Of a stretch of DNA of 64,000 bases, positions 8,001 to 31,066 are shown piece after piece. Under the pieces are notes generated by a model, which was given only the letters and a program-made list of their open reading frames with translations, had not been told where the DNA came from and ran no database searches. The stretch spans positions 352 through 64,351 of the forward strand of contig CAZYTP010000001.1 of assembly GCA_964650385.1 (NCBI GenBank). The letters run 5' to 3'. Each line of letters begins with the position of its first letter. The first letter of the stretch is position 1. The position numbers and the translations under genes were made by a program. Source of the DNA: an uncultured Syntrophales bacterium. GTDB taxonomy: Bacteria; Desulfobacterota; Syntrophia; Syntrophales; JADFWA01.

Positions 8001-8237
8001 CTCGACTATCTTTTCAACAACATCAGCCGTTATCGGTTCAATATAGGTACGATCCGCCATTTCAGGATCGGTCATAATAGTGGCAGGATTGGAATTCAGA
8101 AGGACAACCTCGTAGCCTTCTTCCCGCAGGGCCTTGCAGGCCTGGGTACCGGAATAATCGAATTCGCATGCCTGTCCTATAACGATCGGACCTGATCCGA
8201 TAATGAGTATTTTCTTGAGATCTGTACGCTTGGGCAT
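5025..8237 (-). CDS. carB: carbamoyl-phosphate synthase large subunit
   Basis: 1070 aa with duplicated ATP-grasp halves, starting [33 protein letters not shown]. Confidence 0.97.
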
Positions 8238-8247
8238 ATATCTAATT

Positions 8248-9786
8248 TTATTCCCATTCTATCGTGCTTGGCGGTTTAGAGCTGATATCATATACCACTC
8301 GATTCACACCTTTTACTTCATTAATAATCCGCGAAGACATCCGTGACAGGACATCATTGGGGAGCCTTACCCAATCCGCCGTCATACCATCAAGACTTGA
8401 TACTATCCTGAGGGCGATCACATTTGCATACGTTCGTTCGTCTCCCATGACTCCAACAGTCTTGACCGGCAACAGTACGGCAAAAGCCTGCCAAATATCT
8501 TCGAAACCTTCGTAATTGAGTATTTCTTCCTTGACGATGCTGTCGGCATGACGGAGCACCGCCAGGCTGGCCTCAGTAACCTCACCGATAATCCGTACAG
8601 CCAGGCCCGGACCGGGGAACGGTTTTCGTTTCAAAAGCTTGTCCGGAAGTCCTAACTCTTTGCCGAGAATCCTCACTTCATCTTTAAAGAGCTCTTTCAG
8701 CGGCTCGATCAATTCAAATCCGAGTTCTTCAGGAAGCCCGCCCACATTATGATGACTCTTGATCGTTGCCGATGGTCCTCCGTGGGCGGAGCGGCTTTCG
8801 ATAACGTCCGGGTAAAGCGTGCCCTGTGCCAGAAAGTCGGCATCTTTGATACCCTTTGTCTCTGCCTGGAAAATTCCGATAAACGTTTCCCCGATTATTT
8901 TTCTCTTCTCTTCCGGATCAGTTATCCCTTCCAGGGCATCCAGAAATTCCTTTTTCGCATCGACAATGGTAATATTCAGGGGATAATCATTGGTAAACAT
9001 GGAATCAATTTCATCGACCTCACGTGCCCTGAGCAATCCGTTATTCACAAAAACCGCTTTCATCCGGTTGCCAATGGCGCGTTCGATAAGTGCCGCAACA
9101 ACCGAGGAGTCAACCCCGCCGGAGAGGGCACAAATAACGCTTGAATCGGCAACCTGCGATCGTATTCTTTCCACGGATTCTTCAATAAATTTGCTCATTG
9201 TCCAGCCACCCCGGCAGCCTGCGACATAGTAAAGAAAATTCCGAAGCATATCCATTCCCTGAAGCGTATGAACTACTTCGGGATGAAACTGGACTCCGTA
9301 TATCTTTTTGGCATCGTTACCCATCGAAGCAATAGAACAGGTAGATGTTTGTGCCAGAATTTTATAGCCATCGGGTACGACCGTCACATGATCACCATGA
9401 CTCATCCAGACGTCGAGCCGATGATCCAATCCGTTGAAGATTGATGTAGCATCGGCAACATCGAGTTGCGCCGGTCCGTATTCGCCGCCACTCCTCTTCT
9501 CCACCGTACCACCCAATGCCTGTGCCAACAGTTGTAATCCATAGCATATGCCGAATATTGGAATATTGAGTTCCAGGATACCTTTATCCATGGAAGGATG
9601 TTCAGAATCGAGGACGGAAGCCGGCCCGCCGGACAGTACCAATGCTTTTGGATTCAGTGTTATCAGATCATCCTTTGTAATTGTATGATGAACGATTTCG
9701 GAATATACTCCGAGTTCCCGTATCCTTCGCGCGATAAGTTGAGCGTACTGTGAGCCAAAATCAAAAACGGCGACCAATTCTTTCAT
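8248..9786 (-). CDS. guaA: GMP synthase (glutamine-hydrolysing)
   Basis: 512 aa with a GATase domain plus the [12 protein letters not shown]-loop and a C-terminal ...KPPSTIEWE. Confidence 0.97.
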
Positions 9787-9789
9787 TCG

Positions 9790-10893
9790 TCAACCCCTGT
9801 TCATTTCTTTTTTCATCAGTTCTACAAAACGGCTGAAAAGATGTCGGGCATCATGGGGGCCCGGCCCCGCTTCGGGATGGAATTGGACTGAGAATAAGGG
9901 TAATTCCCTGTGTCTGATCCCCTCCAATGTACTGTCGTTGAGATTCATATGGGTAATCTCTATGGTATTCTTATCCAGTGAGTCTATATCAACACAGAAA
10001 CCGTGGTTCTGCACGGTAACTTCAATCTTTCCCGTTGCCAGGTCTTTTACCGGGTGATTTTCCCCGTGGTGACCGAATTTGAGTTTGTACGTGTTGCCAC
10101 CCAGTGCAAGGCCGAGGAGCTGTTGCCCCAGACAGATACCGAATATGGGCAGTGTTCCAATGTTGACCAAATCACGGATTGTATCAATCGCATATGTTAC
10201 GGCGGCGGGATCACCGGGTCCATTTGACAGAAGGACACCGTCAGGACGTAACTTCATTATTTCACCGGCGGTTGTATCCGCTGGCACAACGGTGATGCGG
10301 CATCCTACATCGACAAGTTGCTCAAGTATGCTGTATTTCAAACCATAGTCTAACACAATTACATGAAGGCCCTCATTTTCAGCCATGACAACATATGGTT
10401 GCTCGCAGGTCACCTCCCTGACCAGGTCCCTGCCGACCAGATCGGGAGAAGCTTTGACTTTTTCAATGAGAGATTGCGTGTCCTGGTCAACCGTCGAGAT
10501 GACGGCCCTCATGGCACCTGCTTCCCGTATATGTTTGGTAAGGGCCCGGGTATCGATCCCCTCGATTCCCATGATGTTGTGTTCTTTTAAAAAAGAATCG
10601 AGATTTTTTTCCGATCTCCAGTTGCTCGGCTTTCGGCACAACTCATTAACCACAAAACCCTCAAGCCAGATGGAACGTGACTCCGAATCTTCATCATTAA
10701 CGCCGTAATTGCCGATCAGAGGATATGTCATAACGACGATCTGGCCTTTATACGACGGATCGGTCAGAACTTCCTGATAGCCGGTCATTCCGGTATTGAA
10801 TACTACTTCGCCGTAATGTTCTCCCGGCACACCGAAGGACGTGCCTTCAAATATTCTTCCGTCTTCCAATACAAGTATTGCTTTTTGTCCCAT
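9790..10893 (-). CDS. carA: carbamoyl-phosphate synthase small subunit
   Basis: 367 aa with the GICLGQQLL amidotransferase motif and a CarA N-domain. Confidence 0.97.
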   Translation of the reverse strand: MGQKAILVLEDGRIFEGTSFGVPGEHYGEVVFNTGMTGYQEVLTDPSYKGQIVVMTYPLIGNYGVNDEDSESRSIWLEGFVVNELCRKPSNWRSEKNLDSFLKEHNIMGIEGIDTRALTKHIREAGAMRAVISTVDQDTQSLIEKVKASPDLVGRDLVREVTCEQPYVVMAENEGLHVIVLDYGLKYSILEQLVDVGCRITVVPADTTAGEIMKLRPDGVLLSNGPGDPAAVTYAIDTIRDLVNIGTLPIFGICLGQQLLGLALGGNTYKLKFGHHGENHPVKDLATGKIEVTVQNHGFCVDIDSLDKNTIEITHMNLNDSTLEGIRHRELPLFSVQFHPEAGPGPHDARHLFSRFVELMKKEMNRG

Positions 10894-10921
10894 ATCTTAC
10901 CTGTTTATCCTACCGGAGCGG

Positions 10922-12763
10922 TTACACAACCTTCTTGCCCTGAACCCATTTTCCCCCTCCCGGATCCATCAAACCAAGCTCCGCAAGCTGCCTGTAAACA
11001 ACAGGGGACGGTGCATTCGTTAATGGGCAGCAAGCATTCCGATTCTTGGGAAACGCAATCACCTCTCGTATCGATGATGTATCAAGGATCATGGAAACGA
11101 GCCGGTCCATACCAATCGCTATTCCACCATGCGGCGGTGTCCCATACTCAAGGGCATCCAAGAAAAAACCGAATTTTTCTTCAACGTCTTCTTTCGACAG
11201 GCCAAGTGCCCGGAAGATTTTTTCCTGTGTATGTCGTTCATTAATGCGGATACTTCCTCCACCCAGTTCCTCTCCGTTTATCACCAGGTCATACGCCCGT
11301 GAACGGAGTTGAAGGAGTTTTTCCCGGTCATCGGGATTGAATTCGCTTTGCTGTGGTGCCGTAAACGGGTGATGGTTCGACGTTATACCGGTTTTAGTCG
11401 ATTCGAAAAGCGGGAAATCGGTAATCCACAGCGGCGCGTATGTTTTACTCGGTATAAGGTTGAACCGATCTGCAATGTTAAGCCGGAGCAGACCTAAAAC
11501 ATTATTTACATTCTTAGATGATTGATCGGCAATCATAATTATAACGTCACCGTCTTCGGCCTGAAAGCGTTTTAGTATTTCGTTTTGTTCGCCTTCACTG
11601 AAAAATTGCACGATATTTGATTCCAAAACCCCATCAACAACCCGCATCCATGTCATGCCCCTGGCGCCAAAGGATGGCACAATCTGTTTTGCGTATTCAT
11701 TCTGTAGAACATTTTTGCTCAGTTTTTTCGACTGGCCATTTATATTGATTCCTTTGATGCTGCCATTTTTTTCAACAATATTTTTGAATATTCCGTAGTT
11801 AGTATCTCCAAATATATCGGTGGCTTCAACAAACCGTAAGTCGAAACGGATATCAGGGCGATCCGTGCCCATTGTGTCCATAGACTCCTGCCATGTCATC
11901 CGGGGAAACGGCTTCTGCAGGACAATGTTTTTTATGGCGAACACCTTGACAATGAGTTCCTCCATGATTTCATATATGAATTCCTCATCGACGAATGACG
12001 CCTCAATGTCAAGCTGGGTAAACTCGGGCTGCCGGTTGGGACGGAGGTCTTCGTCACGAAAACACCGGGCAATCTGGAAGTATCTCTCCAGCCCTCCAAT
12101 CATAAGAAGCTGTTTGAAAAGCTGTGGTGACTGGGGCAGAGCATAAAAGTGCTGTCGATGAACACGGCTCGGCACCAGATAATCCCGGGCACCTTCCGGC
12201 GTACTTTTTGTGAGTATGGGTGTTTCAACCTCAATAAAACCATTCATGCGAAGGTAGTCACGGACACACCCCGTGATTTGATCCCTTTTTATGAGATGCT
12301 CCTGTATCGTGGGACGCCGAAGATCCAGATATCGATATTTCAGCCTGATATCCTCTCCGACCGAGCCTGCACTCGAAACAGTGGCTCCCGTAACCATGGC
12401 CTTTTCTGATATGGGAAAAGGAATCGTTAGGGACTCGTTGAGAATGATAAGATCCGATGCTGCCACCTCGATCTTGCCGGTCTCGATATTCCGGTTTTCA
12501 GTATCCTCACTACGTTTCACCACGCGACCGGTAACAACAACACAATATTCATTCCTCAGTGAGACCGCTCGCTCATATACATCAGAAGAGATAAAACCGG
12601 GATTAAAAACAACCTGGACAATTCCGCTTCTGTCCCTCAAATGTATAAACAGCACATCTCCATGGTCTCTAAGAGCATCAACCCATCCCATTAGCCGTAC
12701 ATTGTTGCTATCCACATCGGACAAACTCAGGTATCCGCAATGTGACCGGTCCTTATATGTCAT
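10922..12763 (-). CDS. aspS: aspartate--tRNA ligase
   Basis: 613 aa with class II aaRS motifs (FRDEDLRPNRQPEFTQLD, GGGSIRI). Confidence 0.97.
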   Translation of the reverse strand: MTYKDRSHCGYLSLSDVDSNNVRLMGWVDALRDHGDVLFIHLRDRSGIVQVVFNPGFISSDVYERAVSLRNEYCVVVTGRVVKRSEDTENRNIETGKIEVAASDLIILNESLTIPFPISEKAMVTGATVSSAGSVGEDIRLKYRYLDLRRPTIQEHLIKRDQITGCVRDYLRMNGFIEVETPILTKSTPEGARDYLVPSRVHRQHFYALPQSPQLFKQLLMIGGLERYFQIARCFRDEDLRPNRQPEFTQLDIEASFVDEEFIYEIMEELIVKVFAIKNIVLQKPFPRMTWQESMDTMGTDRPDIRFDLRFVEATDIFGDTNYGIFKNIVEKNGSIKGININGQSKKLSKNVLQNEYAKQIVPSFGARGMTWMRVVDGVLESNIVQFFSEGEQNEILKRFQAEDGDVIIMIADQSSKNVNNVLGLLRLNIADRFNLIPSKTYAPLWITDFPLFESTKTGITSNHHPFTAPQQSEFNPDDREKLLQLRSRAYDLVINGEELGGGSIRINERHTQEKIFRALGLSKEDVEEKFGFFLDALEYGTPPHGGIAIGMDRLVSMILDTSSIREVIAFPKNRNACCPLTNAPSPVVYRQLAELGLMDPGGGKWVQGKKVV

Positions 12764-14865: not shown

Positions 14866-14916
14866 GTACCAGGACTTAACTACATTTTGGAAGGTCAAGC
14901 TACGACAATTGAAGCT

Positions 14917-15005
14917 CCCCGCAACAAGTTGCGGGGAATCTCCGACTGTTAAGGAGGATTGTTATTTTTATTCGCTCGCTAACCCCGCTGCAAGCAGCGG
15001 GGAAT
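14917..15005 (+). promoter_or_regulatory. Twin near-identical hairpins in the amt leader
   Basis: CCCCGC-AACAAGTT-GCGGGGAAT (14917-14939) and CCCCGC-TGCAAGCA-GCGGGGAAT (14983-15005) are 66 nt apart, between the candidate promoter and the amt RBS. Confidence 0.6.
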
Positions 15006-15069
15006 GCGCTTGCTGTTCAGTTCCAATATCCGCTCTCCACTCAGGATTACGGATGAAAGGAGAAAAAAG

Positions 15070-16434
15070 ATGATTAAATGTTTAAGATGGTTATGTCCGT
15101 TAATTCTAGCAGTTTTAGGTTTTTCAACACTGGCTTTTGCCCAGGACCCGACAGGGGCTGAGACCTTGAAGGCAAACCCTCAGGCCCCTCTTAATTATGT
15201 GTGGATTCTTGTTTGCGCTTTTCTTGTTATGTTTATGCAGGCAGGTTTCGCGATGCTGGAGGCCGGATTTTGCAGGGTTAAGAATGTCACCAACCTTATG
15301 GCCAAGAACCTGATGGATTATTGTATAGGCTCCCTATGCTTTTTCCTAGTTGGTTATGCCCTAATGATGGGGGGAGACTGGCACGGACTCTGGGGTACAG
15401 AAGGCTGGTTGATGACAGGTAAGTACTATGATGTAGGCAAGTATCTCAACATGTTCTGGATGCTGGTTTTCTGTGCCACAGCAGCGACTATAGTTTCAGG
15501 TGCGGTAGCAGAACGTCTGAAGTTCAAGGCTTACTTCATTTACAGTATTGCGGTGAGCGTTATCATTTATCCTATTTATGGACACTGGGTCTGGGGCGGT
15601 GGATGGCTTTCCAGCCTTCCCTTTGGATTGGGTGCCATCGATTTTGCCGGCAGTGGCGTGGTTCACGCTATAGGCGGTTTCGTCGGCCTGGCTGGAGCAA
15701 TGGTCGTAGGTCCCAGGTATGGCAAATACATTAAGGGAGTACCACAGGCCATTCCCGGACATAGTCTGGCCATGGCCGCTCTTGGAGTCTTTATTTTATG
15801 GTTTGGCTGGTTTGGTTTTAATCCGGGAAGCACCTGTGACGCACACCACTTAAGGATTTCCATTATCGCGGTAAATACCAACCTGGCCGCCGCGGCCGGC
15901 GCTTGCGTAGCGTTACTCGCAGCGTACCTGAAAACGGGTAAATGGGATGTGGGTATGGCATTGAACGGCGCTGTTGCCGGTCTGGTGGCGATAACCGCGC
16001 CCTGTGCCTGGGTAGAAGGCTGGGCAGCGATTGTAATCGGGCTCATTGCCGGCGTGTTGATGTATGCCAGTGTTCGATTCTTTGATAACAGAGGGATAGA
16101 CGACCCTGTTGGAGCTATAAGTGTGCACGGCACCTGCGGACTGTGGGGGCTGCTCGCTGTTGGACTCTTTGCCGACGGAACCTACGGCAATTACGCTATT
16201 GAGGCGCCATTTGCCACAGGTCTCTTTTATGGCGGTGGGTTTAATCAGCTTATTGCCCAGGTTATCAGTATTGTGGTGATTTTTGTCTGGGCCTTCGGCA
16301 TGGGATATATAGTATTCAAGTTGATGGATGTGACTTTTGGTATCCGTATTTCTCCTGAAGAAGAGTTGCTGGGATTGGATATCACAGAACATGGGACACC
16401 TGCATATCCGGATTTTGTGCAGCTAAACAGGTAA
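15070..16434 (+). CDS. amt: ammonium transporter
   Basis: Amt/MEP family motifs (DFAGSGVVH) are present. I moved the start to the ATG at 15070, which has an AAAGGAG RBS and begins a signal-like MIKCLRWLCPLILAVLGFSTLAFA. The track start at 15004 would read through the hairpins. Confidence 0.95.
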   Translation: MIKCLRWLCPLILAVLGFSTLAFAQDPTGAETLKANPQAPLNYVWILVCAFLVMFMQAGFAMLEAGFCRVKNVTNLMAKNLMDYCIGSLCFFLVGYALMMGGDWHGLWGTEGWLMTGKYYDVGKYLNMFWMLVFCATAATIVSGAVAERLKFKAYFIYSIAVSVIIYPIYGHWVWGGGWLSSLPFGLGAIDFAGSGVVHAIGGFVGLAGAMVVGPRYGKYIKGVPQAIPGHSLAMAALGVFILWFGWFGFNPGSTCDAHHLRISIIAVNTNLAAAAGACVALLAAYLKTGKWDVGMALNGAVAGLVAITAPCAWVEGWAAIVIGLIAGVLMYASVRFFDNRGIDDPVGAISVHGTCGLWGLLAVGLFADGTYGNYAIEAPFATGLFYGGGFNQLIAQVISIVVIFVWAFGMGYIVFKLMDVTFGIRISPEEELLGLDITEHGTPAYPDFVQLNR

Positions 16435-16451: not shown

Positions 16452-16808
16452 ATGAAAAAAATAGAAGCGATAATCAGACCGGAGAAGTTGGATGAAGTGA
16501 GAAAGGCATTAAAGGATATAGGTTATCCGGGGATGACCACCGTCCATATCGAGGGGCATGGCCAGCAGAAGGGCACGGTCGAGCAATTTCGTGGCAGGGA
16601 ATTTAAAGTTGAGTTCCTGCCAAAGGTCAAGATTGAAATCGTTACCGAAGACGGGGATGTGGACCGTATTGCCAAGACTATAATCAAAGCGGCCAGGACC
16701 GGTAAAATAGGCGACGGCAAAATATTCATTGTCGAAGTGGTTAATACAATAAGGATACGTACCGGAGAGGAGGGTGATAAAGCGATAGGCATTACTTCAG
16801 ATAAATGA
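16452..16808 (+). CDS. glnK: P-II nitrogen regulatory protein
   Basis: 118 aa starting MKKIEAIIRPEKLDEV, with T-loop and GDGKIF motifs. It sits immediately downstream of amt. Confidence 0.95.
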   Translation: MKKIEAIIRPEKLDEVRKALKDIGYPGMTTVHIEGHGQQKGTVEQFRGREFKVEFLPKVKIEIVTEDGDVDRIAKTIIKAARTGKIGDGKIFIVEVVNTIRIRTGEEGDKAIGITSDK

Positions 16809-16957
16809 CGATGTAGTTAAGGAAAACTATCATCAGGGAACAATGTGCCCGCAATATAATCTGACGTGGCGACATTTTTCCCTGATCGAGGGAGATGAAG
16901 TTACAAAATGTCCCTTTTAAAAATTACAAATTAAAATACGGAAAAAGGAGAAAAGTA

Positions 16958-17776
16958 ATGAGGAAAGAACGTAAACACACAAGGCAATTTATGGCAGTTT
17001 TGATAGCTTTAATTTTAATCTTTTTCAGCATTACCCCCGCCGTGGCGGAAGATGATGAAAAGCCCACTGCCGACCTGTCGGTTTCAGTCTTGAGCGCCTA
17101 CATCTGGCGCGGGCAGGAATTAAGCAAGGACAGCGCCGTTGTACAACCTTCCATGACGGTGGGTTACAAGGGCTTTTCAGCCAATATGTGGGGAAACCTG
17201 GATACAGATCCCTATTCGACCACAGCCGGAGTAGACAATCCTTCCAAGTGGAACGAGACAGATTTAACGCTTTCATATTCCAGAAGTTGCGGCATTTTCA
17301 ATGTGGGGGGAGGCTATATTTACTATGGCCTGGACGGTGCTAAAGACTCTCAGGAAGTCTTTTTGAACCTGGGTCTTGATACCTTGCTGTCGCCCTCACT
17401 GACAGCTTACCGGGACGTTGGCAGTTACCCGCACTGGTATTTCCTCCTGGGCATCTCCCATTCTTTCAAAGTTACGGAGAAAGTCTCCCTGGAACTTGCA
17501 GCCTCGGCGAGCTATCTAAAGAGCGAGGATTCGGATGATTACCCGGAAATCAACGACAGCGGGGCAAGTACAGGCAATAAATTTGAGAACTTCCACGATG
17601 GCGTGATCTCTGCGAGTTTGCCCATATCCGTGGCAAAATACATCTCTGTAACTCCTGTAGTATCGTGTGCCTTTCCTCTTTCAGGTGATGCAGGTGATGA
17701 AATGAAATACCACAGCAAGAAGGGTGATGACAATGTGTTTGTTTTTGGCGGCTTGACCTTGAGCATGGCCTTTTAA
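16958..17776 (+). CDS. TorF/TIGR02001-like outer-membrane beta-barrel (putative porin)
   Basis: Signal peptide ending AVA, then LSVSVLSAYIWRGQELSKDSAVVQPSMTV, which resembles the Gcw_chp/TorF porin family. The start was moved to the ATG at 16958, which has an AAAGGAG RBS. Confidence 0.65.
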   Translation: MRKERKHTRQFMAVLIALILIFFSITPAVAEDDEKPTADLSVSVLSAYIWRGQELSKDSAVVQPSMTVGYKGFSANMWGNLDTDPYSTTAGVDNPSKWNETDLTLSYSRSCGIFNVGGGYIYYGLDGAKDSQEVFLNLGLDTLLSPSLTAYRDVGSYPHWYFLLGISHSFKVTEKVSLELAASASYLKSEDSDDYPEINDSGASTGNKFENFHDGVISASLPISVAKYISVTPVVSCAFPLSGDAGDEMKYHSKKGDDNVFVFGGLTLSMAF

Positions 17777-21392: not shown

Positions 21393-22268
21393 ATGAAACG
21401 AAACACGACTATAATCCTGGTCATTGTATATATTATTCTGGCGGCAGTAACATTGGCAATTAACTGGGAAAAGCTCTTTCCGCAGGATAAGGAAAAACCT
21501 GCTAAACCCGCCTACAGAGCTGAAAATCCCCCCCCGGCCATAAAGAAACCGGAAATTAAAGAAGCATATAAAATTAAGAAAGGGATAGAAACTAAAGCCG
21601 AGATTTCCGAAGCACCTGCAACTGCACTCAAAGTAATCAAGCATGAAAAAGGCTATGGAGAAATACATCAGGAAGTTATAAATTTTTTCCATTATCTCGA
21701 TCAGAAAGATTACATCAAAGCTTACAGTCTGAAGGAAGGAACGTACAAACATTTCCTTAAACTCATTGAAAAATTGTCCGCCAATCCACCGACCATATCC
21801 GGAGAAACACGGGACATCTACATCCTGACACACAACATAGCTCATTTCTACAGGGTAATCGGGGGAAAAGATATCTCGCTGATAAAGGATATCCTTTCGA
21901 ATGAAAAGGAAATAACCGAACAAACTATGGCACTGCTTTACGAGTGGATTACAAAAGAGATAGGAAACGAGAAAAAAGAAATCAAAACCACAACTAAGGA
22001 TCTTTATGAATATGCTGCTTTTTTCCTAAACACCATGGGAGGAAAGGCATACTTATCAAGAAGGGATTCCAGAACAAGAATATTTGTAACCTACTATTCC
22101 GTTCTTATACTCAATAAAGCAAACGAAGAAACTTTGAACCGTCACGGGGTAGATATCCGCCCCCATTTAAACCTTCTCCTAGAGGATATACGCTATCAGA
22201 AAAACTTGAACCGTAGAACCGAGTATCTTAAAAAGCTAAACACCATCAAAGAGAACTTAATGCCTTGA
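21393..22268 (+). CDS. hypothetical membrane-anchored protein
   Basis: 291 aa with a single N-terminal hydrophobic helix (TIILVIVYIILAAVTLAI) and no family I recognise. Confidence 0.55.
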   Translation: MKRNTTIILVIVYIILAAVTLAINWEKLFPQDKEKPAKPAYRAENPPPAIKKPEIKEAYKIKKGIETKAEISEAPATALKVIKHEKGYGEIHQEVINFFHYLDQKDYIKAYSLKEGTYKHFLKLIEKLSANPPTISGETRDIYILTHNIAHFYRVIGGKDISLIKDILSNEKEITEQTMALLYEWITKEIGNEKKEIKTTTKDLYEYAAFFLNTMGGKAYLSRRDSRTRIFVTYYSVLILNKANEETLNRHGVDIRPHLNLLLEDIRYQKNLNRRTEYLKKLNTIKENLMP

Positions 22269-23441
22269 CAAAAACCCTTCATTCCTCCTGTACCACAGGT
22301 TAGGAAATAATTTATAGATAACCCTTGATGTCAATCCGATATATTCCTTATCTCTCCTGTCAAACTGACAGGCCTGTATTATTTTCTCTTTAATCCCCTC
22401 CCTTGTGCCGCCTTCATTGAATATTTTATAGGCACAATTAAACAAAGGGCTATACATGTTTTTCTTTTCAAGATATCTATATACATTTCTAATTGTGTTG
22501 GGACCTTCAGGAGTTCCATCAATTTTTCCCATCACATTAATATCTGTCTCTATAGGATTTTTGTTGAATAATTCGTAGAAAAGTTTGCCATATCTGTAAT
22601 TCTTGCTTGCCTCTGAAGAAACGGTAACATACAGATCCCCTACCCCTGCCTGGCTGTGAAACGCCTGGAAACTTCCACCCAGCAGTTTCGACAGCGATCG
22701 TATCTCAACACCGGACCTGGCAAATATCGTTCCTGGAATAGAATCTCCAAGATTTAAGCAATCAGCAAGACCCTTTATATTTGCCACAATATTTTTGAGC
22801 GCTCCACATGCTTCGACCCCAATAACATCAAAATTATAATATGAGGATAATTCACTCCTGTCGCACCTTATTATTTCAGACCTGACAACTTTTGACATTT
22901 TTTTGCTTCCGGCAATAGTTAAACATACAGGTCTTCCAAGGGCTATATCAACATCAAAAAAGGGGCCTCCGATACACACAATTTTATACTTATGACTTAA
23001 CCCAAACAGACTGCTGTTTATCATCCGTGACGGCGTTATCAGTTCCTTTGTTTTTTCATATGAAGCCAGACCTTTGATGGGAGATATGAAGCAGGTATTT
23101 CCTTTTTTCTTTCCGATGATCGGCTTCAAGTAATTCAATATTTCTGAAAGTTTGTTCATCGTAACTGCAAGAAAGATGAATTCATTATCTTCAACAATTC
23201 TCTCCAGATCGTTTGTTGCAGAAACATTAGAGGGTAATCTCGGAACATTTTGTTTGCCACCTAATAATTTTCCAAGATCATCCGTCAGGTGTTTTGGATT
23301 AAGGTGTTCTCTATTTATTGTATGACACAATTCAGCATCATGATAATAGATTGTAACCCTCTTATCGTCCCTTCCAAACTTGTAGGCCAGAGCAGTCCCA
23401 AGCCTTCCAGGCCCAATTATCGCTATTTTACTGAAATCCAA
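22257..23441 (-). CDS. NAD(P)-dependent glycerol-3-phosphate dehydrogenase-like protein
   Basis: 394 aa with the Rossmann start IAIIGPGRLGTALAYKF and a GpsA-like core carrying a C-terminal extension. Confidence 0.65.
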   Translation of the reverse strand: MDFSKIAIIGPGRLGTALAYKFGRDDKRVTIYYHDAELCHTINREHLNPKHLTDDLGKLLGGKQNVPRLPSNVSATNDLERIVEDNEFIFLAVTMNKLSEILNYLKPIIGKKKGNTCFISPIKGLASYEKTKELITPSRMINSSLFGLSHKYKIVCIGGPFFDVDIALGRPVCLTIAGSKKMSKVVRSEIIRCDRSELSSYYNFDVIGVEACGALKNIVANIKGLADCLNLGDSIPGTIFARSGVEIRSLSKLLGGSFQAFHSQAGVGDLYVTVSSEASKNYRYGKLFYELFNKNPIETDINVMGKIDGTPEGPNTIRNVYRYLEKKNMYSPLFNCAYKIFNEGGTREGIKEKIIQACQFDRRDKEYIGLTSRVIYKLFPNLWYRRNEGFLSRH

Positions 23442-23717
23442 ATTATCTCCTCACGTACTAAATTGAAACGCACCCGTGCTATATAGGTAAAAAAAGGTCT
23501 GTATGTCAAGTGAATTTGGGGGTTGCATGTTCTGGTTATAACCCGAGAAACTGTACAGCCATTCCGCAGAGGCATATTGATCCACCGGCCAGTGCATGGG
23601 TATATTTTAATGATCTGGCCCGAAAAAGGTATAAAAAAACCCATGGAAACGGCTGTCTCTGTAATGGTCAAATTTGTTGATTTCTGTGATCAATAACCTT
23701 CTTTCAATCTAAAACTT

Positions 23718-23960
23718 TTAAAGCCTGTTCTTGCCGACCGTCTTGACAGACGGAAATCGGCTTAAATCGGTGTGGGGCAGAAATAGCGCCCCTGTATATT
23801 GATCCATATAACCGGGATCAGTGCTGAGTTCGATGTATGTCATTCGCCGTGCATGCTCGAGCTGCCTCTGACGGTGCTTTTGTGAAACCAGCACCATATA
23901 TCCCCCCTTCAGGGAAGAATTCCCGACATACGAGAATTTTTCCCGCGGCAGATCAGGCAT
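23718..23960 (-). pseudogene. 3' fragment (last ~80 codons) of a RACo/ASKHA (DUF4445) corrinoid-protein reductive activator gene
   Basis: (M)PDLPREKFSYVGNSSLKGGYMVL...ELSTDPGYMDQYTGALFLPHTDLSRFPS matches the conserved C-terminal end of RACo-type proteins, which are normally about 600 aa or longer. There is no upstream coding sequence for the rest of the gene. Confidence 0.6.
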
Positions 23961-25468
23961 GAATAAAAGGTATCAATCGATTCGTCTGTCATCGCTTCCA
24001 GACGGCGATTACGTTCATCATATACCTTTCGGGCAAATGCCAATCGGTTTTCAACTTCCCCGATATCAGTAATTATTGTAACCTTGACTTTGTCAACAAT
24101 TGCCGGGTAGTCGGAGATGAACTTGGCATGAATTATTTCGCCGTAATCTCTCAGGCGAAGCCCCTTGTCGAAACTGCTTCTGGATACACGTGTCCATACG
24201 ATATCGCGCTGTCCCATATGCCATATACCTTCCGCGCCATTGACGAGGTGATGAATCTGCCGCTCCAGAATCGGCTCGAAATCGGTCTGCATCTTTCTTC
24301 CGGCCACTTCGACCCAGATGGCAAGAGGCAGAGCGCTTCCCGGTTCCACCGTATCGATATCCGGTCCGACAACCTCGATGTCGCCATCGGTGATTTGGTC
24401 CAGATCTACTGTGGTAACGAATTCAAAGGCTGTTGTTTTGTTTCCGCCAAATTCGACATGCGAATCGGCCGCTCGAATACGTTCTCCCTCGAAGGCCGGG
24501 CCGTAGGGAACCGGTATGGAAACTTCGGTGACCATGATCTTGCAGCCGCGGACTTCCAGCGCTTTCTCAACCATCGATTCGTAAGGTACTTGAGAAACGA
24601 CATGTTCATAGGTACAGATTCCGGTAGGCAGGATCTGGGGAATATCGGTATCCGCAATAACGGGGAACCCGTAGTTGATAGCCCCCGCCGCTGCGGCGTA
24701 TTTATCCGGCGTGACCTCTCCGAAAGCCAGCACAAAAGCGAAGATACGATTTTTGTTATATTTTAGATCGTTTTCAAAATCGCCGGGTTCTACTCCGCCG
24801 AATGAAAGGGCAGCGCGGTTGGCAAATCCAAGGGCATAGATCAATGCCGACACATCCCTGCCAAAGGGTACGAGACGTGTCTCCCATCCGAGCTGCACAC
24901 CTTCTTCGGCCAACTGCTCGGCAAACTGTCTGCCGTCCGTACAGCCGGCCATGAATACATAAAGGTTCTTTTCCTGAAGCTGCCGGGCTATTTTAACCGC
25001 TATTTCATTGGAGGGCGCCGCGCCGGTAATAGCAGCAAAACCTGGGGCCGTACCGTCGACAAACTCTATCCCCCGCTCCCGCATTATTACGTCATCGGCT
25101 GCACCGAGCCAGATTCCCTCTACCGGATTGGGGCCAACGGCATATTTGCAGGCTTCGATTACTTCACATGCAAAGAGAGCGGCAACACCGGCATCGAGGG
25201 CATTGCCCAGATAGGGCAGCCAGACTTTATCTGCGGGGCGTTCGGGAAGCAGTTCTCTTGCCAGCCTTAAGACATGAAGCAGGTCATCGAGGGTCTGAAC
25301 TTTTTCGCCGGTAAATGAATAAATTACCGGCAGGTAATAAGCGGTATTGGGAAAGCAGGCCGGGGTCGTTTCACCCTTTACTCGAATCGCTTTATCAAGA
25401 ATACCTTCAGCACGTGAAACCCACTCAATGGCTCCATCAATAGCACTACCGCAGATTATCTTAGACAC
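23909..25468 (-). pseudogene. acsB: acetyl-CoA synthase (AcsB / CODH-ACS alpha) truncated before the A-cluster domain
   Basis: 519 aa, colinear with AcsB domains 1-2 up to ...MTDESIDTFYSCLIC. It then has 13 unrelated codons and a stop, whereas full-length AcsB is about 730 aa. There is an 8-nt overlap with the cooS stop. Confidence 0.8.
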
Positions 25469-27410
25469 CGAGCTCTCTCCTGTCTCTCATATCGTACAAC
25501 TTCCTTTCGGCCTTTTTGTCGATTCCCAGCTTTCTTCGGGACTCATCAAGGAGCTCCATGACCACTTCGACAGCCTTCAGTGGATCCTCGCATACATGGA
25601 AAGATCCGCCGAATATTTCTTTCGTCTCTTCTTCAAGGAAATGGGTAACATTTTCCGATCCTGCGATACGGAAAGGATGACCAAGTATTACATCGATTCC
25701 CGATGCAACAAAATAACAGCTGATCGCCACTGCCTTTTCACTCATCCATTCCGGGGCAACACCTACCGCGGGAATCTGCGACAGATCGTCACCGAGTCCG
25801 CCCTCAAGGACGACCTCAGTTCCCGCTTCAAGTATACGGGAATTATCGATACAGCTCCCCATATGTAAAACCGGCGGCATACCGACGGCCTCGCACACCT
25901 CACGCAGTCCATCTCCCGCGTGTTCAAGTGCCGCTTCGGGCATCATCATTCCTTCCTTCGCCGAGGCAATAGCAGCGCAACCGGTCTTAAGAACAAGAAC
26001 ATTTTGTTTGATCAACTCACGGGTAAGAATATTGATATAGGCGTCAACTTTCTGGTGGGGATTGTTGCAGCCGACGATTCCCACGAGGCCCTTGATGCGA
26101 CCATCCATAATGGCATCATTCAGCGGGCGGAATGACGCCCTGTATGTCCCCCCGAGCATGTATTTGATCGCGTCGACACTGAACCCGGCAACAAGCGGTT
26201 TTTTTATATCGGGGATATTTACCTTTTCCGGGTCACGATTTCTAAAGTTGTCGGCGGCCCTTTTTATCAGGTCTTTGGCTGATTGGAGAGGATCTTCCCT
26301 GTCAAAGGGCAGATGCGTAGCCCCGATGGTTTTCGCAATATCCGAGGTGGAAATAATTTCTGTATGGTAAGACTTTGCCACATCGGGAAGGCTCGGCAGG
26401 CAGCACTGGACATCGATCAGCATCATTTCGACCGCACCGGTCACTATAGCAAGTTCCTGCTGGAGGAAGTTTCCCGCCACAGGGATTCCGTGCCTCATAA
26501 GGATTTCATTTGCAGTACAGCAGATTCCGGCCAGGGTAACACCATCGGAACCGACCTTCCTTGCATACGCCACGATTTCCGGATCTGAAACGGCCACTGC
26601 CAGCATTTCCGAAAGTGCAGGTTCATGCCCGTGGACAATGATGTTGACCGTCTTTTCACCCAGAACACCGAGATTCGCATTGCTGCGTACCGGTGATGGC
26701 GTTCCAAAAAGAATATCCGACACGATGGTTGCTATCCTGGAACCACCCCAGCCATCGGCAAGGGAAGTACAAAATGCGTGCAGAAGAAGATTACGATAAT
26801 CATGATCCACACCTATATGGGTACGGTGCAGAGATTCGACAATAACTCGATCTATGCCTTTTGGCATAATACGATGATTTTTCCAGATATTTTGCTGTTT
26901 GACCGGTGACAGCGTTACGGTTTCAAGCGTCTCCTCCTGAAGCATGAACTCATTCAAAAAAAGATTCGCCAGGTCAAGGGTCACCTCTTCCTTGCTCCGC
27001 CCGGCCTCATCAACATTGTAAAGCCGTGCGGCATAGCGCAACGCATTTTCATCCTTGATTGTGTACTCGCCGCTATTTCCTTCACCGACCTTTTTCAGCA
27101 ATAGTGTCAGGTGACGGCCGTGATCGGAATGAGCCGCTGCCCCGCCGGCAACTTCACGAAGAAAATTACGCGCCACAATGGTATCGGCATCGGCACCGCA
27201 TACTCCGCGAGGAGCCTTGCCGGTTATACGGCACGGCCCCATATAACAGATACGGCAGCAACTCCCGTCCGTGCCGAAGGTACACCGTTTCCGCTGAGCG
27301 TCAACACGTGTGAAACAGGTTTGCACACAATCACTTTCCGCCTTAATCAAGGTTTCAATAGACGCAAAATCACTTACACGGTCTTCAATTTTTTTCGTTT
27401 CTTTTGCCAT
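25461..27410 (-). CDS. cooS: anaerobic carbon-monoxide dehydrogenase catalytic subunit
   Basis: 649 aa with N-terminal Cys clusters (CTFGTDGSCCRICYMGPCRI) and a typical CooS/AcsA core. Confidence 0.93.
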   Translation of the reverse strand: MAKETKKIEDRVSDFASIETLIKAESDCVQTCFTRVDAQRKRCTFGTDGSCCRICYMGPCRITGKAPRGVCGADADTIVARNFLREVAGGAAAHSDHGRHLTLLLKKVGEGNSGEYTIKDENALRYAARLYNVDEAGRSKEEVTLDLANLFLNEFMLQEETLETVTLSPVKQQNIWKNHRIMPKGIDRVIVESLHRTHIGVDHDYRNLLLHAFCTSLADGWGGSRIATIVSDILFGTPSPVRSNANLGVLGEKTVNIIVHGHEPALSEMLAVAVSDPEIVAYARKVGSDGVTLAGICCTANEILMRHGIPVAGNFLQQELAIVTGAVEMMLIDVQCCLPSLPDVAKSYHTEIISTSDIAKTIGATHLPFDREDPLQSAKDLIKRAADNFRNRDPEKVNIPDIKKPLVAGFSVDAIKYMLGGTYRASFRPLNDAIMDGRIKGLVGIVGCNNPHQKVDAYINILTRELIKQNVLVLKTGCAAIASAKEGMMMPEAALEHAGDGLREVCEAVGMPPVLHMGSCIDNSRILEAGTEVVLEGGLGDDLSQIPAVGVAPEWMSEKAVAISCYFVASGIDVILGHPFRIAGSENVTHFLEEETKEIFGGSFHVCEDPLKAVEVVMELLDESRRKLGIDKKAERKLYDMRDRRELGV

Positions 27411-28212
27411 AATGAATACGTTTCAAAAATATCCTGTTTTATTCCCATAAGAAGTGTCCCACGTCAAACTTATTCTGTTCCCCAAACAAACAAATAAGGG
27501 CCCAAAAAAAATCTAATCCAGTCACTACCCATTCCGTGTGGATCGAATAGTGACGTAACAGCTTAATTTCACTCGTTTCATCCCGCAATTTACGGTTTAT
27601 TGACGTTGATACCCGCTCCTGTCCCCTGTCAGAATATCTGCGTTTTGTTGATAATAGGTACGGAGTAAATTTACAGGAAAATTCGTCCAATATCAACTTA
27701 TCAGGACAAACCGACCCGATAATCATCGGCGTACAATATGTCAATATTTTGACAATTATTTTCGTAAAGTGTCCGTATACAACTCGTTGGCATACAAAGC
27801 CGTTTCTAATCGCCTCCAAAAAATATTTTTGGGGTTCACCCCCTCGAATATCTCATAAAACTCTGAGCAGGGAATAAGTGTGATTGTATGAATCTCCCAA
27901 TGAGTTTCGCAGCAATTGACAGGGAGCGAACCCCGCAAGCCCCGCCCCGTGGGCGGAGAGTTTAACTTGCCTCATCGTTTTTTGAAATGTTTTGTACACA
28001 ATCAGCATCCATTTATATGTCTTCCAAAAGCGATTATTTTTGCATAATTAAATATTAGGAAGCCATAAATTGTCGTGGTGGTATGGGTTTTGCTGTTTTG
28101 TCTTAATGCACAAATTTAGTCAGGTGATTTTGCACCCGTCAAATTTTTCCAGCGGTGCCGAATGTAACGATTATACCCTTTGTGTGTATAATCTTCAGGG
28201 TTATCTTTCAAT

Positions 28213-28989
28213 ATGGGACATATTATCTGCATTACAAGCCAGAAAGGAGGCGTCGGCAAAACAACAACCGCCATCAACCTTTCGGCAGCCCTTGCCTTAG
28301 CTGAAAAAAAATCATTACTTGTAGATTGTGATCCTCAGGGCAATGCAACTTCGAGTATGGGAATAGATAAAAGCAAATTAAGAGTAACTTTGTATGATGC
28401 CATGATCGGGAATGAAATGCTAAGCAACGTGATCATTGATAGCAAAATCAGTTTTTTGAAAATGCTTCCGGCTCGTATCGATCTTGCCAGAACAGAAGCG
28501 GAACTTTTTTCGAAGCCTGGTAAAGAAAAAATACTGAGAAATTTACTCCATGATTTCAAAGATGTATATGACTATATTATCATCGACTCACCGCCTTCTC
28601 TAAGCATCCTTACGGTAAATGCGATAATCGCGGCGGATTCCTTACTGATTCCTCTTCAGTGTGAATTCTATGCATTAGAAAGTATGAGACAACTTTTAAA
28701 GACCATCCGAATCCTTAAGAAAAAATTTAACCCTGATCTTCGTATTAACGGCATACTTTTAACGATGTTTAAAAAAAATGAGGAAATATCCAGCCAGATT
28801 GCTGAAGAAGTCCGAAATCATTTCAAATACATGGTATTCAAGACAGTGGTCCCCAGAAACGTACAATTGCGGGAATCTGCTGTTCATGGAAAACCTCTGC
28901 TGCTGCAGGACATTTTATCCCAGGGGGCACGCAGCTATATGGAACTGGCAAGTGAAATCATGGCCATGAGAGCAGAGGCTGAATATTGA
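28213..28989 (+). CDS. parA: ParA/Soj-type partition ATPase
   Basis: 258 aa with the deviant Walker A SQKGGVGKTTTAINLS and VVPRNVQLRESAVHGKPL, as in chromosomal Soj. Confidence 0.9.
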   Translation: MGHIICITSQKGGVGKTTTAINLSAALALAEKKSLLVDCDPQGNATSSMGIDKSKLRVTLYDAMIGNEMLSNVIIDSKISFLKMLPARIDLARTEAELFSKPGKEKILRNLLHDFKDVYDYIIIDSPPSLSILTVNAIIAADSLLIPLQCEFYALESMRQLLKTIRILKKKFNPDLRINGILLTMFKKNEEISSQIAEEVRNHFKYMVFKTVVPRNVQLRESAVHGKPLLLQDILSQGARSYMELASEIMAMRAEAEY

Positions 28990-29021
28990 ACAAATATCCT
29001 ATTGAAGAAAGGAGTCGTTGC

Positions 29022-29522
29022 GTGAAAATAACAAACCCTGAAGTTATCAAGAACGGTGAAAGCGAACTGATTGACGCCATAACCGCCGATATGGATTGGG
29101 TGGCTATTGAAGAAGTTTTTTTGAAAAAACATAAATTGAATATCGATGATGACGTAGAGTACAAGAAAGGTGATATTGTTGTTTATAATAATCAGATTGC
29201 ATATAAATTAGAATTTGACGTCAAAGTTAATCTTTCTATTTTACTGGATAGAGATGGAAATCATATATCCGTCTCAACTTCTCTTGATCGGGATAATGCC
29301 GCGGAAGAGGATGAAAAAAGCTTGTCAGGTGAGCCAGGTCAGGCCGATGACGAGAAAGAAAGCAGCTTTGAAGAGGCATTATCCGAACTTGACCAGCATG
29401 AACCCCCTGAAAATACTGAAATGGGTTCAACGACAGATGATGATAAGAGCTCACAGGAAAAGATTTCTGAGTTGGCAGCCACTGCCGGGGAAATAATGGA
29501 GCAAATAGAGGATGAAAAATAG
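29022..29522 (+). CDS. hypothetical protein with a highly acidic C-terminal half
   Basis: I prefer the GTG at 29022, which is preceded by GAAAGGAG, over the track ATG at 28986. The C-terminal ~70 aa are D/E/S-rich. No family recognised. Confidence 0.5.
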   Translation: MKITNPEVIKNGESELIDAITADMDWVAIEEVFLKKHKLNIDDDVEYKKGDIVVYNNQIAYKLEFDVKVNLSILLDRDGNHISVSTSLDRDNAAEEDEKSLSGEPGQADDEKESSFEEALSELDQHEPPENTEMGSTTDDDKSSQEKISELAATAGEIMEQIEDEK

Positions 29523-29599: not shown

Positions 29600-31066
29600 A
29601 TGGAAAATAAAGCTCAAGAGAAAAAACCTGTGGAAAATAAGGCAGGAAGCCTGTTTGATAAAATACTTGGCCGTAATTTGGAAAGGCTGCTTGGAACAAA
29701 GTATGGTATCGGGGGGTTACCGGTAAATATACCCGCCATATCATGCATTATTATCCTTGCGGAACAGGCAAAAAACGAGATGGGGGGCGGGGTTGCCCGA
29801 CCAGAACATTATACCCGGGAAATGTTATTTGATGAATTGACCGAAATGGGTTTGGATGCTGATGAAGTCATGAACACGACTATATCGGATATGATTCGTA
29901 GGGGCTACATGGAAATTGATGCTGATTACAGAATCTTCATCAAGGAACATACAATTAACATGGCCCAGTTGCTGGACCGCATCTTTCCAAAAATGCCAGG
30001 AATAAATCTCGTTGCCTTCCTCACTCAGACCATAGATGAAGTACAATCCGGACGTAAAAATCTTGAAGATGCCAAAAGTTACTTGGACCAGGCATTAAAA
30101 ATGCACGGTGTTGCTCTTAAAAAAAGGCAGCCCCAGAAAGAACAGAAAGGGGCATCAGCTCCGGCTGACAGGCTGAGAGCATTAAAACATGAGACGCTGG
30201 CAACCATTACAAGAAGCCGGCAATTTACCAGTAGTAAAGTTATAAGAGGCTCAGACGTAAATGTTGTTCATCAAAAACCGGCAAACAAGAAAAAAACAAC
30301 ATACGTACCTTCTTCCGATATTGCAACGTTGCCTTCTGAAGGAATAACAGAGTCTCACAAAAACATTGCCGAATCCGTGGGTCAAACCATGGACATACCT
30401 GATATAACTTCAGCAACCCTCCCTGAAGAAAGCTACTTGACCGAGAAACTGGATTCTATCGAAAAAACCCTGCAAGATCTCCCCTTAAGCCATAAAGGAT
30501 CATCTTCCCCATCAGAGTTGGAAGAAAAAGAAAACCTGTCCTCTCTGGACGTTGTCCCGGAAAGCAAAGAGGATGAAACAATTCAGATAACAGATCCGGT
30601 GCTTGATGAAAAAACGGGGGAAGAATTAGATCTTGTTCCCGGTGAAGAGATAATTGAGGGGAAAGATGATGCCATTGAAAAGAAAATTGCCGCCTTTGAA
30701 GAAGACCTCGCGATGCAATGCCCGATATGTAGAATCGCCGGTATCAAAACACAAGAAACCAGTACGGGTAAATTTTATTATGTATGTTCCGATAAAAACT
30801 GCACCTTTATAAGCTGGGGCAAACCACACCATTTTGTCTGTCCGGAATGCAGTAATCCCTTTTTGGTGGAATCTTTGCACAGAGATGGAAAAACGGTTTT
30901 AAAATGTCCGAGGGCGACATGCCTCCATTGGCAAAAACACCCTTCTGAAATATCAGAAGAAGATAACGCCTTGTCATCATCTCGGGTATCCCGGGAAACA
31001 ACAACTACTGCACCTCCCCGCCGCAAAAGAGTCGTCAAAAAAAAGTTTGTCCGCAAAAAGCGATAG
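29600..31066 (+). CDS. protein with an unknown N-domain, a long disordered linker, two topoisomerase-type C4 zinc ribbons and a basic tail
   Basis: CPICRIAGIKTQETSTGKFYYVCSDKNCTFISWGKP and CPECSNPFLVESLHRDGKTVLKCPRATC match the zf-C4_Topoisom pattern. The protein ends PPRRKRVVKKKFVRKKR. Confidence 0.7.
   Translation: MENKAQEKKPVENKAGSLFDKILGRNLERLLGTKYGIGGLPVNIPAISCIIILAEQAKNEMGGGVARPEHYTREMLFDELTEMGLDADEVMNTTISDMIRRGYMEIDADYRIFIKEHTINMAQLLDRIFPKMPGINLVAFLTQTIDEVQSGRKNLEDAKSYLDQALKMHGVALKKRQPQKEQKGASAPADRLRALKHETLATITRSRQFTSSKVIRGSDVNVVHQKPANKKKTTYVPSSDIATLPSEGITESHKNIAESVGQTMDIPDITSATLPEESYLTEKLDSIEKTLQDLPLSHKGSSSPSELEEKENLSSLDVVPESKEDETIQITDPVLDEKTGEELDLVPGEEIIEGKDDAIEKKIAAFEEDLAMQCPICRIAGIKTQETSTGKFYYVCSDKNCTFISWGKPHHFVCPECSNPFLVESLHRDGKTVLKCPRATCLHWQKHPSEISEEDNALSSSRVSRETTTTAPPRRKRVVKKKFVRKKR

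Follow-up and report, generated by a model that had tools for sequence, protein, structure and literature searches.

A CODH/ACS operon of an uncultured anaerobe that appears to have lost its middle in one deletion between short repeats

How does a gene cluster for CO dehydrogenase/acetyl-CoA synthase (CODH/ACS) come to hold a gene for the CO dehydrogenase, an acsB of 519 codons and, in another reading frame, nothing more than the end of a gene for the activator RACo/AcsV? This arrangement is found in a 64-kb stretch of DNA from an uncultured anaerobe related to Syntrophales (the window in what follows). We have analyzed it with profile searches and by alignment to syntenic relatives. The reading that we favor, with a probability of roughly 0.9, is that a single deletion of ~5.1 kb took the middle out of a CODH/ACS operon at this locus.

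What remains of the operon

The features of the locus are collected in Table 1. The gene for the CO dehydrogenase shows no damage. CooS matches TIGR01702 (anaerobic CO dehydrogenase catalytic subunit) over positions 9-621 of 621 with 619.6 bits (cut-off 478) and reaches an E value of 1e-162 with PF03063 in the profile search, and its length is also that of the CooS proteins of three intact relatives, L004, L087 and L089, that are described below. At sites that are at least 97% conserved in 74 relatives the window protein differs twice (A144T and A288S), and two is also the median of the relatives. The pairwise dN/dS of cooS is ~0.12, and the number of amino acid changes unique to each branch, with L004 as outgroup, is 12 for the window, 15 for L087 and 13 for L089. 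The stop of cooS is overlapped by the start of the acsB remnant over 8 nt (25461-25468), an overlap that the relatives have as well. Given the undamaged gene, interconversion of CO and CO2 by this CooS is probably still feasible.

Table 1. Features of the locus; positions are those of the window
Feature	Position	Strand	Basis and remarks
gpsA-like gene, NAD(P)H glycerol-3-phosphate dehydrogenase, downstream flank	22257..23441	minus	PF01210 and PF07479
RACo/AcsV remnant, last 80 codons and native stop	23718..23960	minus, frame other than acsB'	PF14574, NF040756
acsB remnant (AcsB'), 519 codons, GTG start, TGA stop	23909..25468	minus	ORF and profile matches
Putative deletion junction, 13-nt microhomology TGCCTGATCTGCC	23947..23959	minus	aligns to both acsB and RACo sites of intact relatives
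cooS/acsA, Ni-Fe CO dehydrogenase catalytic subunit	25461..27410	minus	649 aa, intact; TIGR01702, PF03063
ParA/MinD-like ATPase, divergently transcribed upstream flank	28213..28989	plus	ParA/CbiA Pfam matches; syntenic with L004

The product of the acsB remnant, AcsB', is a composite. Residues 1-507 comprise the N-terminal (CODH-binding) domain, the middle domain and ~25 residues from the start of the A-cluster domain, while residues 508-519 are RACo DNA read in the wrong frame up to a TGA. PF18537 (residues 22-109, E 7e-29) and PF03598 (residues 318-471, E 1e-63) are complete. The A-cluster domain PF19436 is represented by positions 1-26 of 245 with 24.5 bits against a cut-off of 25, and the AcsB profile NF040764 is matched over positions 1-487 of 705 with 636 bits, under its cut-off of 800. 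AcsB' ends in ...FYSCLIC and 12 unrelated residues, so that the peptide across the junction is ...DTFYSCLICRGK, where the relatives read on with ...SCLLCQSFAPNHVC..GLCGA...SCGCFE. Only the first two cysteines (CxxC) of what we take to be the A-cluster ligands in the Moorella and Carboxydothermus structures (CxxC...C...C plus a downstream CGC Ni site) are present in AcsB', and the full ligand set is absent.

Of RACo the window retains a C-terminal piece. The 80-aa ORF matches the ends of two profiles, PF14574 (RACo_C_ter; positions 189-261 of 261, E 2.4e-20) and NF040756 (AcsV; positions 563-632 of 632, 90 bits, cut-off 800). The ferredoxin, linker, middle and complete ASKHA ATPase domains are absent, whereas RACo of L004 has all four of its domains (Fer2, linker, middle, C-terminal; 641 aa). 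Gene callers annotate just the last 59 codons of the remnant (23718-23897), and the same 59-aa call is made in four further contigs with this junction (L001-L003 and L086).

The original prediction, which had been made from the bare sequence, thus described the remaining genes well: it had called cooS intact with an 8-nt overlap to the acsB start, had noted a 519-aa acsB-like ORF without the A-cluster domain and had recognized the C-terminal end of a RACo-type activator in the 80-aa ORF. Two of its figures have to be changed. It counted 13 unrelated codons after the colinear part of acsB, and there are 12 (R508-P519). It also expected a full-length protein of ~730 aa, and the gene of this clade encodes an AcsB::AcsD fusion of ~1173 aa.

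The intact operon in relatives and the junction

For the comparison with relatives, one genome per GTDB species was scanned and the best 80 of 390 relatives were fetched. Among these 80, a long acsB(D) is present at every locus with enough contig, together with cooS, acsC and RACo. The closest of them is L004, an uncultured Syntrophales MAG (contig CAZZBF010000001.1), with flanks of 84-87% nucleotide identity to the window. Its operon consists of cooS (8059-10008, 649 aa), acsB::acsD (1173 aa), acsC (446 aa) and RACo, followed by gpsA. The 1173-aa gene carries PF18537, PF03598, PF19436 and PF03599, and the FeS and CdhD domains of the 446-aa gene identify it as AcsC. The pieces left in the window align to the two ends of this operon: AcsB' is 92% identical in amino acids to residues 1-508 of AcsB::AcsD, and the RACo remnant is 96% identical to RACo residues 561-640. 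The window and L004 also have the same neighbors, namely the ParA-like gene upstream (in L004 a 257-aa ORF at the equivalent place) and, downstream, the gpsA-like gene, a 291-aa ORF and an M16 peptidase. The window gpsA-like gene shares 93% amino acid identity with the gene after RACo in L004 and delimits the original operon at its far end.

Three JGI metagenome contigs, L087, L088 and L089, were reached via the CooS cluster at 90% identity. Over cooS and the 5' part of acsB they are 92.6-93.6% identical to the window in nucleotides, and all are intact. The complete cassette is present in L087 and L089; the L087 contig ends before gpsA, in L089 the same gpsA-like gene follows RACo, and L088 is intact up to the contig end inside acsC. 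The 1174-aa orthologue in L087 aligns with residues 9-725 to the ACS chains 9fr0, 1ru3 and 1oao of the PDB (E ~1e-220) and with residues 853-1168 to the small subunit of CFeSP (4djd_D), and this identifies the long gene as an AcsB::AcsD fusion. A fusion of AcsB to RACo as the source of homologues of 800-900 aa was ruled out, the extension being a low-complexity linker followed by AcsD. When L004 and L087-L089 were examined gene by gene, no acsE was called beside the cassette. Based on these syntenic relatives, the ancestral order at the window locus would have been cooS, acsB::acsD, acsC, RACo (acsV) and the gpsA-like gene.

Nucleotide alignment to the intact relatives L004, L087 and L089 fixes the junction. 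The minus strand of the window runs along L004 from 7723 to 11522 and then from 16628 to 16885, and the two alignments share 13 bases of the window. These 13 bases, TGCCTGATCTGCC, are found unchanged (13/13) at the RACo site of L004, L087 and L089. The acsB sites are similar to a varying degree: TGCCTGCTCTGCC in L087 matches at 12/13 positions, TGTCTGCTCTGCC in L004 at 11/13 and TGTTTGCTCTGCC in L089 at 10/13. Compared to the relatives the window is shorter by 5,118 bp (L004), 5,123 bp (L089) or 5,536 bp (L087). The missing segment sets in at about AcsB residue 508 and takes with it the remainder of the A-cluster domain, the linker, the AcsD domain, the entire acsC and RACo codons 1 to ~560. 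An intact allele would be expected to read on with ...TGCCTGCTCTGCCAGTC...; in the window acsB' and RACo are joined out of frame. In the alignment to the intact relatives the flanks abut directly without filler DNA, and for the same reason a mobile element or other inserted DNA at the junction is ruled out.

The lesion is, as far as sequence comparison tells, a microhomology-mediated deletion: the flanks are colinear, a repeat is present at both ends, one copy is kept and there is no filler. Such an event would have been an illegitimate recombination or a replication slippage between two near-identical 13-nt direct repeats, TGCCTG[C/A]TCTGCC. The first repeat lies in acsB codons 504-508, which encode SCLLC, the start of the A-cluster ligand motif, and the second in RACo around codons 559-563 (LPDLP), with one copy retained at the join. 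All AcsB homologues compared read SCLLC, and the window reads SCLIC; the Ile codon is therefore most likely derived from RACo. Since the window has the RACo-type A at the single mismatch, the crossover most likely took place within the first TGCCTG. Known deletions between short repeats in bacteria likewise keep one copy of the repeat and leave colinear flanks without an insert. Measured against these typical cases the window shows nothing out of the ordinary. In the nearest relatives the two copies of the repeat do not match fully (12/13), and the ancestral microhomology would have been 6-13 nt long.

The syntenic relatives show exactly the loss that had been proposed at the outset, in which one deletion took the 3' part of acsB, the bulk of the activator gene and whatever genes stood between the two. 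The same proposal had placed the junction at about 23940-23960, and the aligned position falls within this range; what has to be amended is the assignment of the SCLIC isoleucine, which probably came from RACo. It had further named cooC as an example of a lost gene. The genes lost are instead the acsD domain, fused to acsB, and acsC, and cooC is not part of the segment. With both removed by the deletion, it follows that no acsC or acsD stands downstream in the window.

Assembly, short homologues and the age of the deletion

A junction of this kind might also arise in the computer, if an assembler had made a false join between acsB and the RACo 3' end via the short repeat and the true genome had the full operon. 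The sequence common to both sites is a possible point of confusion, and several unrelated database contigs end within a few codons of the conserved acsB region, which seems to be hard for assemblers. However, the repeat is only 13 nt long and matches at 10-12 of 13 positions in the relatives, and no intact version above 93.6% nucleotide identity was seen among the relatives compared. The k-mers behind the k141-named ENA contigs and the Logan contigs (k=31) are far longer than this imperfect repeat, which makes an artefact of the assembler very unlikely. Moreover, the same junction has been assembled repeatedly. The exact 519-aa protein is encoded on at least 8 contigs, and in its protein cluster JGI accounts for 6 contigs and NCBI, Logan and ENA account for 4. 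With the junction included, the window is 100% identical to L001 (ENA ERZ27248897, 85.8 kb) over 21.6 kb, to L002 (Logan SRR8437278) over 14.1 kb and to L003 (ENA ERZ27248885) over 7.7 kb, and it differs from L086 (JGI 3300028167, 85.8 kb) by 1 base in 21,950. These contigs represent essentially one clone (at most 1 SNP), and their independence is that of samples and assemblers, not of lineages; the same population may still harbor an intact allele as a minority. A collapsed assembly, which the original prediction had named as a possible objection, does not agree with a junction that recurs with at most one mismatch in JGI, ENA (k141-named) and Logan contigs of several samples, and we consider an artefact scarcely credible. 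A strain-specific 29-mer left of the junction has 0 exact matches in metagenome_contigs, a collection without the deletion-bearing JGI contig.

The other objection named there was a family of naturally short AcsB proteins. No family ends at the position at which AcsB' of the window ends, and among ~85 relatives no family of proteins truncated in this manner was found. Entries of 500-507 aa that end near DTFY (P0045) were discarded, as they are contig ends. A further candidate, P0085, comes from a Bryobacteraceae MAG. Its gene is interrupted by a single in-frame TAG at a Tyr codon, and the remainder of acsB::acsD follows in the same frame. Members of 1210 aa and 1171 aa also occur in the clusters to which P0085 and P0030 belong.

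When did the deletion happen? In neither the acsB' nor the RACo remnant did we find stops, frameshifts or an excess of substitutions. The 5' part of acsB has a pairwise dN/dS of 0.09-0.15. At sites that are at least 97% conserved AcsB' has 3 odd residues, compared to a median of 1 in the relatives and 4 each in L004 and L089. In the RACo remnant, whose frame has stayed open, the changes that occur in the window alone number only 1 in amino acids and 4-5 in nucleotides. Since neither remnant shows decay, the deletion would be evolutionarily recent, which is the simplest reading of the two remnants. The counts of branch-unique amino acid changes in the acsB 5' part, again with L004 as outgroup, give at most hints of relaxed constraint: there are 17 for the window against 6 for L087, but 20 for the window against 19 when L089 is used.

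Consequences for function and known systems

Judged from its domain content, the gene set of the window should no longer allow synthesis or cleavage of acetyl-CoA, because the A-cluster domain is for the most part gone, as are the two subunits of CFeSP and the activator. AcsB' itself is probably still translated, in view of the 8-nt overlap between its start and the stop of cooS, which the relatives share. A cryo-EM study has described the ACS N-terminal domain (residues 2-315) as rigidly bound to the CODH core (PMC12289521). The CODH-binding domain is kept in AcsB', and for this reason the remnant may still sit on CooS.

It might be that the remnant is kept for a function, with AcsB' binding to CooS and capping or gating the gas tunnel, so that a stable stand-alone CO dehydrogenase has been made from the bifunctional enzyme. 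The maintained translational coupling to cooS, the presence of exactly that part which is rigidly bound to the CODH core, and 507 codons without stops or frameshifts, in which the three unusual substitutions at conserved sites stay within the range of intact relatives, are consistent with this idea. A recent deletion would, however, lead to the same absence of decay, and the non-coding RACo remnant is just as undecayed. One clone only carries the deletion, which gives long-term retention no support, and the lack of a family of truncated proteins among the ~85 relatives speaks against it as well. Retention for function is in our view quite improbable, and none of our observations calls for selection on AcsB'. 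If AcsB' were nevertheless retained and expressed, the locus would be a snapshot of a bifunctional CODH/ACS on its way to a stand-alone, tunnel-capped CO dehydrogenase.

A different possibility concerns the cell rather than the locus. The deletion may be real and yet have no physiological effect, if the acetyl-CoA synthase is supplied by an intact subpopulation or by another complete acs cluster at a different place in the genome. Direct support for this was not found. The cassette appears to move between phyla, and extra copies are therefore conceivable; furthermore, our view of the genome covers 64 kb (up to 87.7 kb of contig). Against this stands that the 64-kb window has no second copy of acsB, acsC or RACo, that none of the 80 GTDB loci (the best 80 of 390 relatives) comes from the same organism, and that the next-closest AcsB in the protein database is only 83% identical. 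We regard a substitute of this kind as unlikely, if somewhat less so than a retained function of AcsB'. The preferred reading thus remains an operon that recently lost its middle and, with it, the acetyl-CoA synthase encoded at this locus.

Compared with the CODH/ACS cluster that serves the Wood-Ljungdahl pathway in bacteria such as Moorella thermoacetica and Carboxydothermus hydrogenoformans, cooS and AcsB 1-507 of the window are clear orthologues, and the order of the genes and the overlap of cooS with acsB agree with the CODH/ACS clusters of the relatives. In contrast to the known clusters, the window lacks AcsD and AcsC as well as the greater part of the A-cluster domain and 7/8 of RACo, and in this clade acsB and acsD form one gene of ~1173 aa. 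A precedent for partial decay of such an operon exists in C. hydrogenoformans Z-2901, a natural or laboratory lineage with an intact ACS, in which a small deletion has shifted the frame of cooS-III (Wu et al. 2005, PMC1287953). In both cases a deletion has inactivated one of the CODH/ACS partners and left the other intact. However, the two are mirror images: there the CODH is broken by a frameshift, while in the window ACS, CFeSP and RACo were apparently removed by a 5-kb deletion and the CODH is intact. Besides this frameshift, nothing directly relevant was found in the literature on acsB pseudogenes and acsB::acsD fusions.

The genes and the type of lesion are both already well known, and what we describe is ordinary gene decay caught early; no concept is changed by it. 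The locus does offer a clean and datable case of operon decay via a short-repeat deletion in an uncultured anaerobe, and a natural truncation of ACS in which the CODH-binding domain is kept. In marker-gene surveys based on counts of cooS or of the acsB 5' part, such a locus would be misscored as positive for the acetyl-CoA pathway.

Regarding the surroundings of the operon, a scan for promoters and terminators from 23300 to 28300 gave counts not above those of shuffled controls, and an Rfam scan of the whole window gave no matches. The ParA-like gene upstream of cooS is no clear CooC; its NCBIfam matches, led by ParA_partition and MinD, all stay under the cut-off. The other genes of the window are housekeeping genes, among them gltA, carAB, guaA, aspS, purF and amtB-glnK, together with a chemotaxis cluster and glycosyltransferases.

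Fused acsB::acsD genes and the history of the cassette

Throughout the clade acsB and acsD form a single gene of ~1170 aa, in which AcsB is followed by a low-complexity linker and the CFeSP small subunit. We find this layout in L004, a syntenic Syntrophales MAG with an intact operon, in the closer JGI relative L087 and generally in the further relatives' loci L005-L083; a literature search yielded no description of such a fusion. The gene lies in a cassette with the order cooS, acsB::acsD, acsC, RACo, carried by MAGs labelled Syntrophales, Verrucomicrobiota, Lentisphaerae, KSB1, Planctomycetota, Bacteroidota, Bacillota, Spirochaetota and Acidobacteriota. AcsB identity is ~80% in these MAGs, and this distribution suggests wide horizontal transfer of the cassette, if the bin labels are right.

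Relatedness along the window operon (23718-27410) is a mosaic when compared with L004, L087 and a further JGI relative, L089. The window cooS and the 5' part of acsB are nearest to L087 and L089 (dS 0.18-0.26, versus 0.37-0.69 to L004), whereas the RACo 3' remnant is nearest to L004 (dS 0.27, versus 0.65-0.79 to the other two). The upstream neighbours are also those of L004, unlike in the JGI relatives L087-L089, where a pair of CbiA/CooC-like ATPase genes and one gene with a PCC domain precede the operon. Together, the mosaic and the differing neighbours suggest recombination or cassette replacement among relatives.

Shortened and interrupted acsB sequences

Several unrelated metagenome contigs, encoding the AcsB homologues P0045, P0083, P0030 and P0039, end near acsB codon ~502-507, within a few codons of the highly conserved SCLLCQSFAPNHVC-coding stretch. 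Assembly graphs are likely tangled here by near-identical sequence common to several species. The ~500-aa partial AcsB proteins in databases are mostly contig-end artefacts at this stretch.

In a Bryobacteraceae MAG (L084, JBDKRQ010000564.1) acsB::acsD has an in-frame TAG at 1616-1618 where DTF[Y]SCLLCQSF has its Tyr codon, two codons ahead of the position matching the window junction. The reading frame is otherwise open past the TAG. The stop, absent from a 1210-aa protein in the same 90% cluster, reflects either a nonsense mutation or an error in sequencing.

A shared 116-nt element and ORFs of conserved position

A 116-nt element 5' of the window amtB (15070-16434) recurs with 90.5% identity, in opposite orientation, directly 5' of cooS in L087-L089. 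It contains two GC hairpins, CCCCGC-NRCAAGYN-GCGGGGAAT, and at one stem position both strands differ yet still pair, the window having A-T where L087-L089 have G-C. The element has no Rfam entry; it could be a repeat of the REP or MITE type, or else a pair of terminators.

Coordinates of the features
Feature	Locus	Position	Strand	Remark
acsB::acsD fusion	L004	10001-13522		
acsB::acsD fusion	L087	8006-11530		
116-nt element	window	14908-15023	+	
116-nt element	L087	5918-6033		
116-nt element	L088	2459-2574		
116-nt element	L089	2652-2767		
GC hairpins of element	window	14917-14939 and 14983-15005		spaced 66 nt
488-aa ORF	window	29600-31066	+	conserved position, no Pfam match
178-aa ORF	window	28986-29522	+	conserved position, no Pfam match
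291-aa ORF	window	21393-22268	+	conserved position, no Pfam match
293-aa ORF	window	16895-17776	+	conserved position, no Pfam match

The 488-aa ORF, likewise without an NCBIfam match, is syntenic in the contigs of the same clone (L001-L003 and L086) and ends C-terminally in a Cys-rich, zinc-ribbon-like segment.
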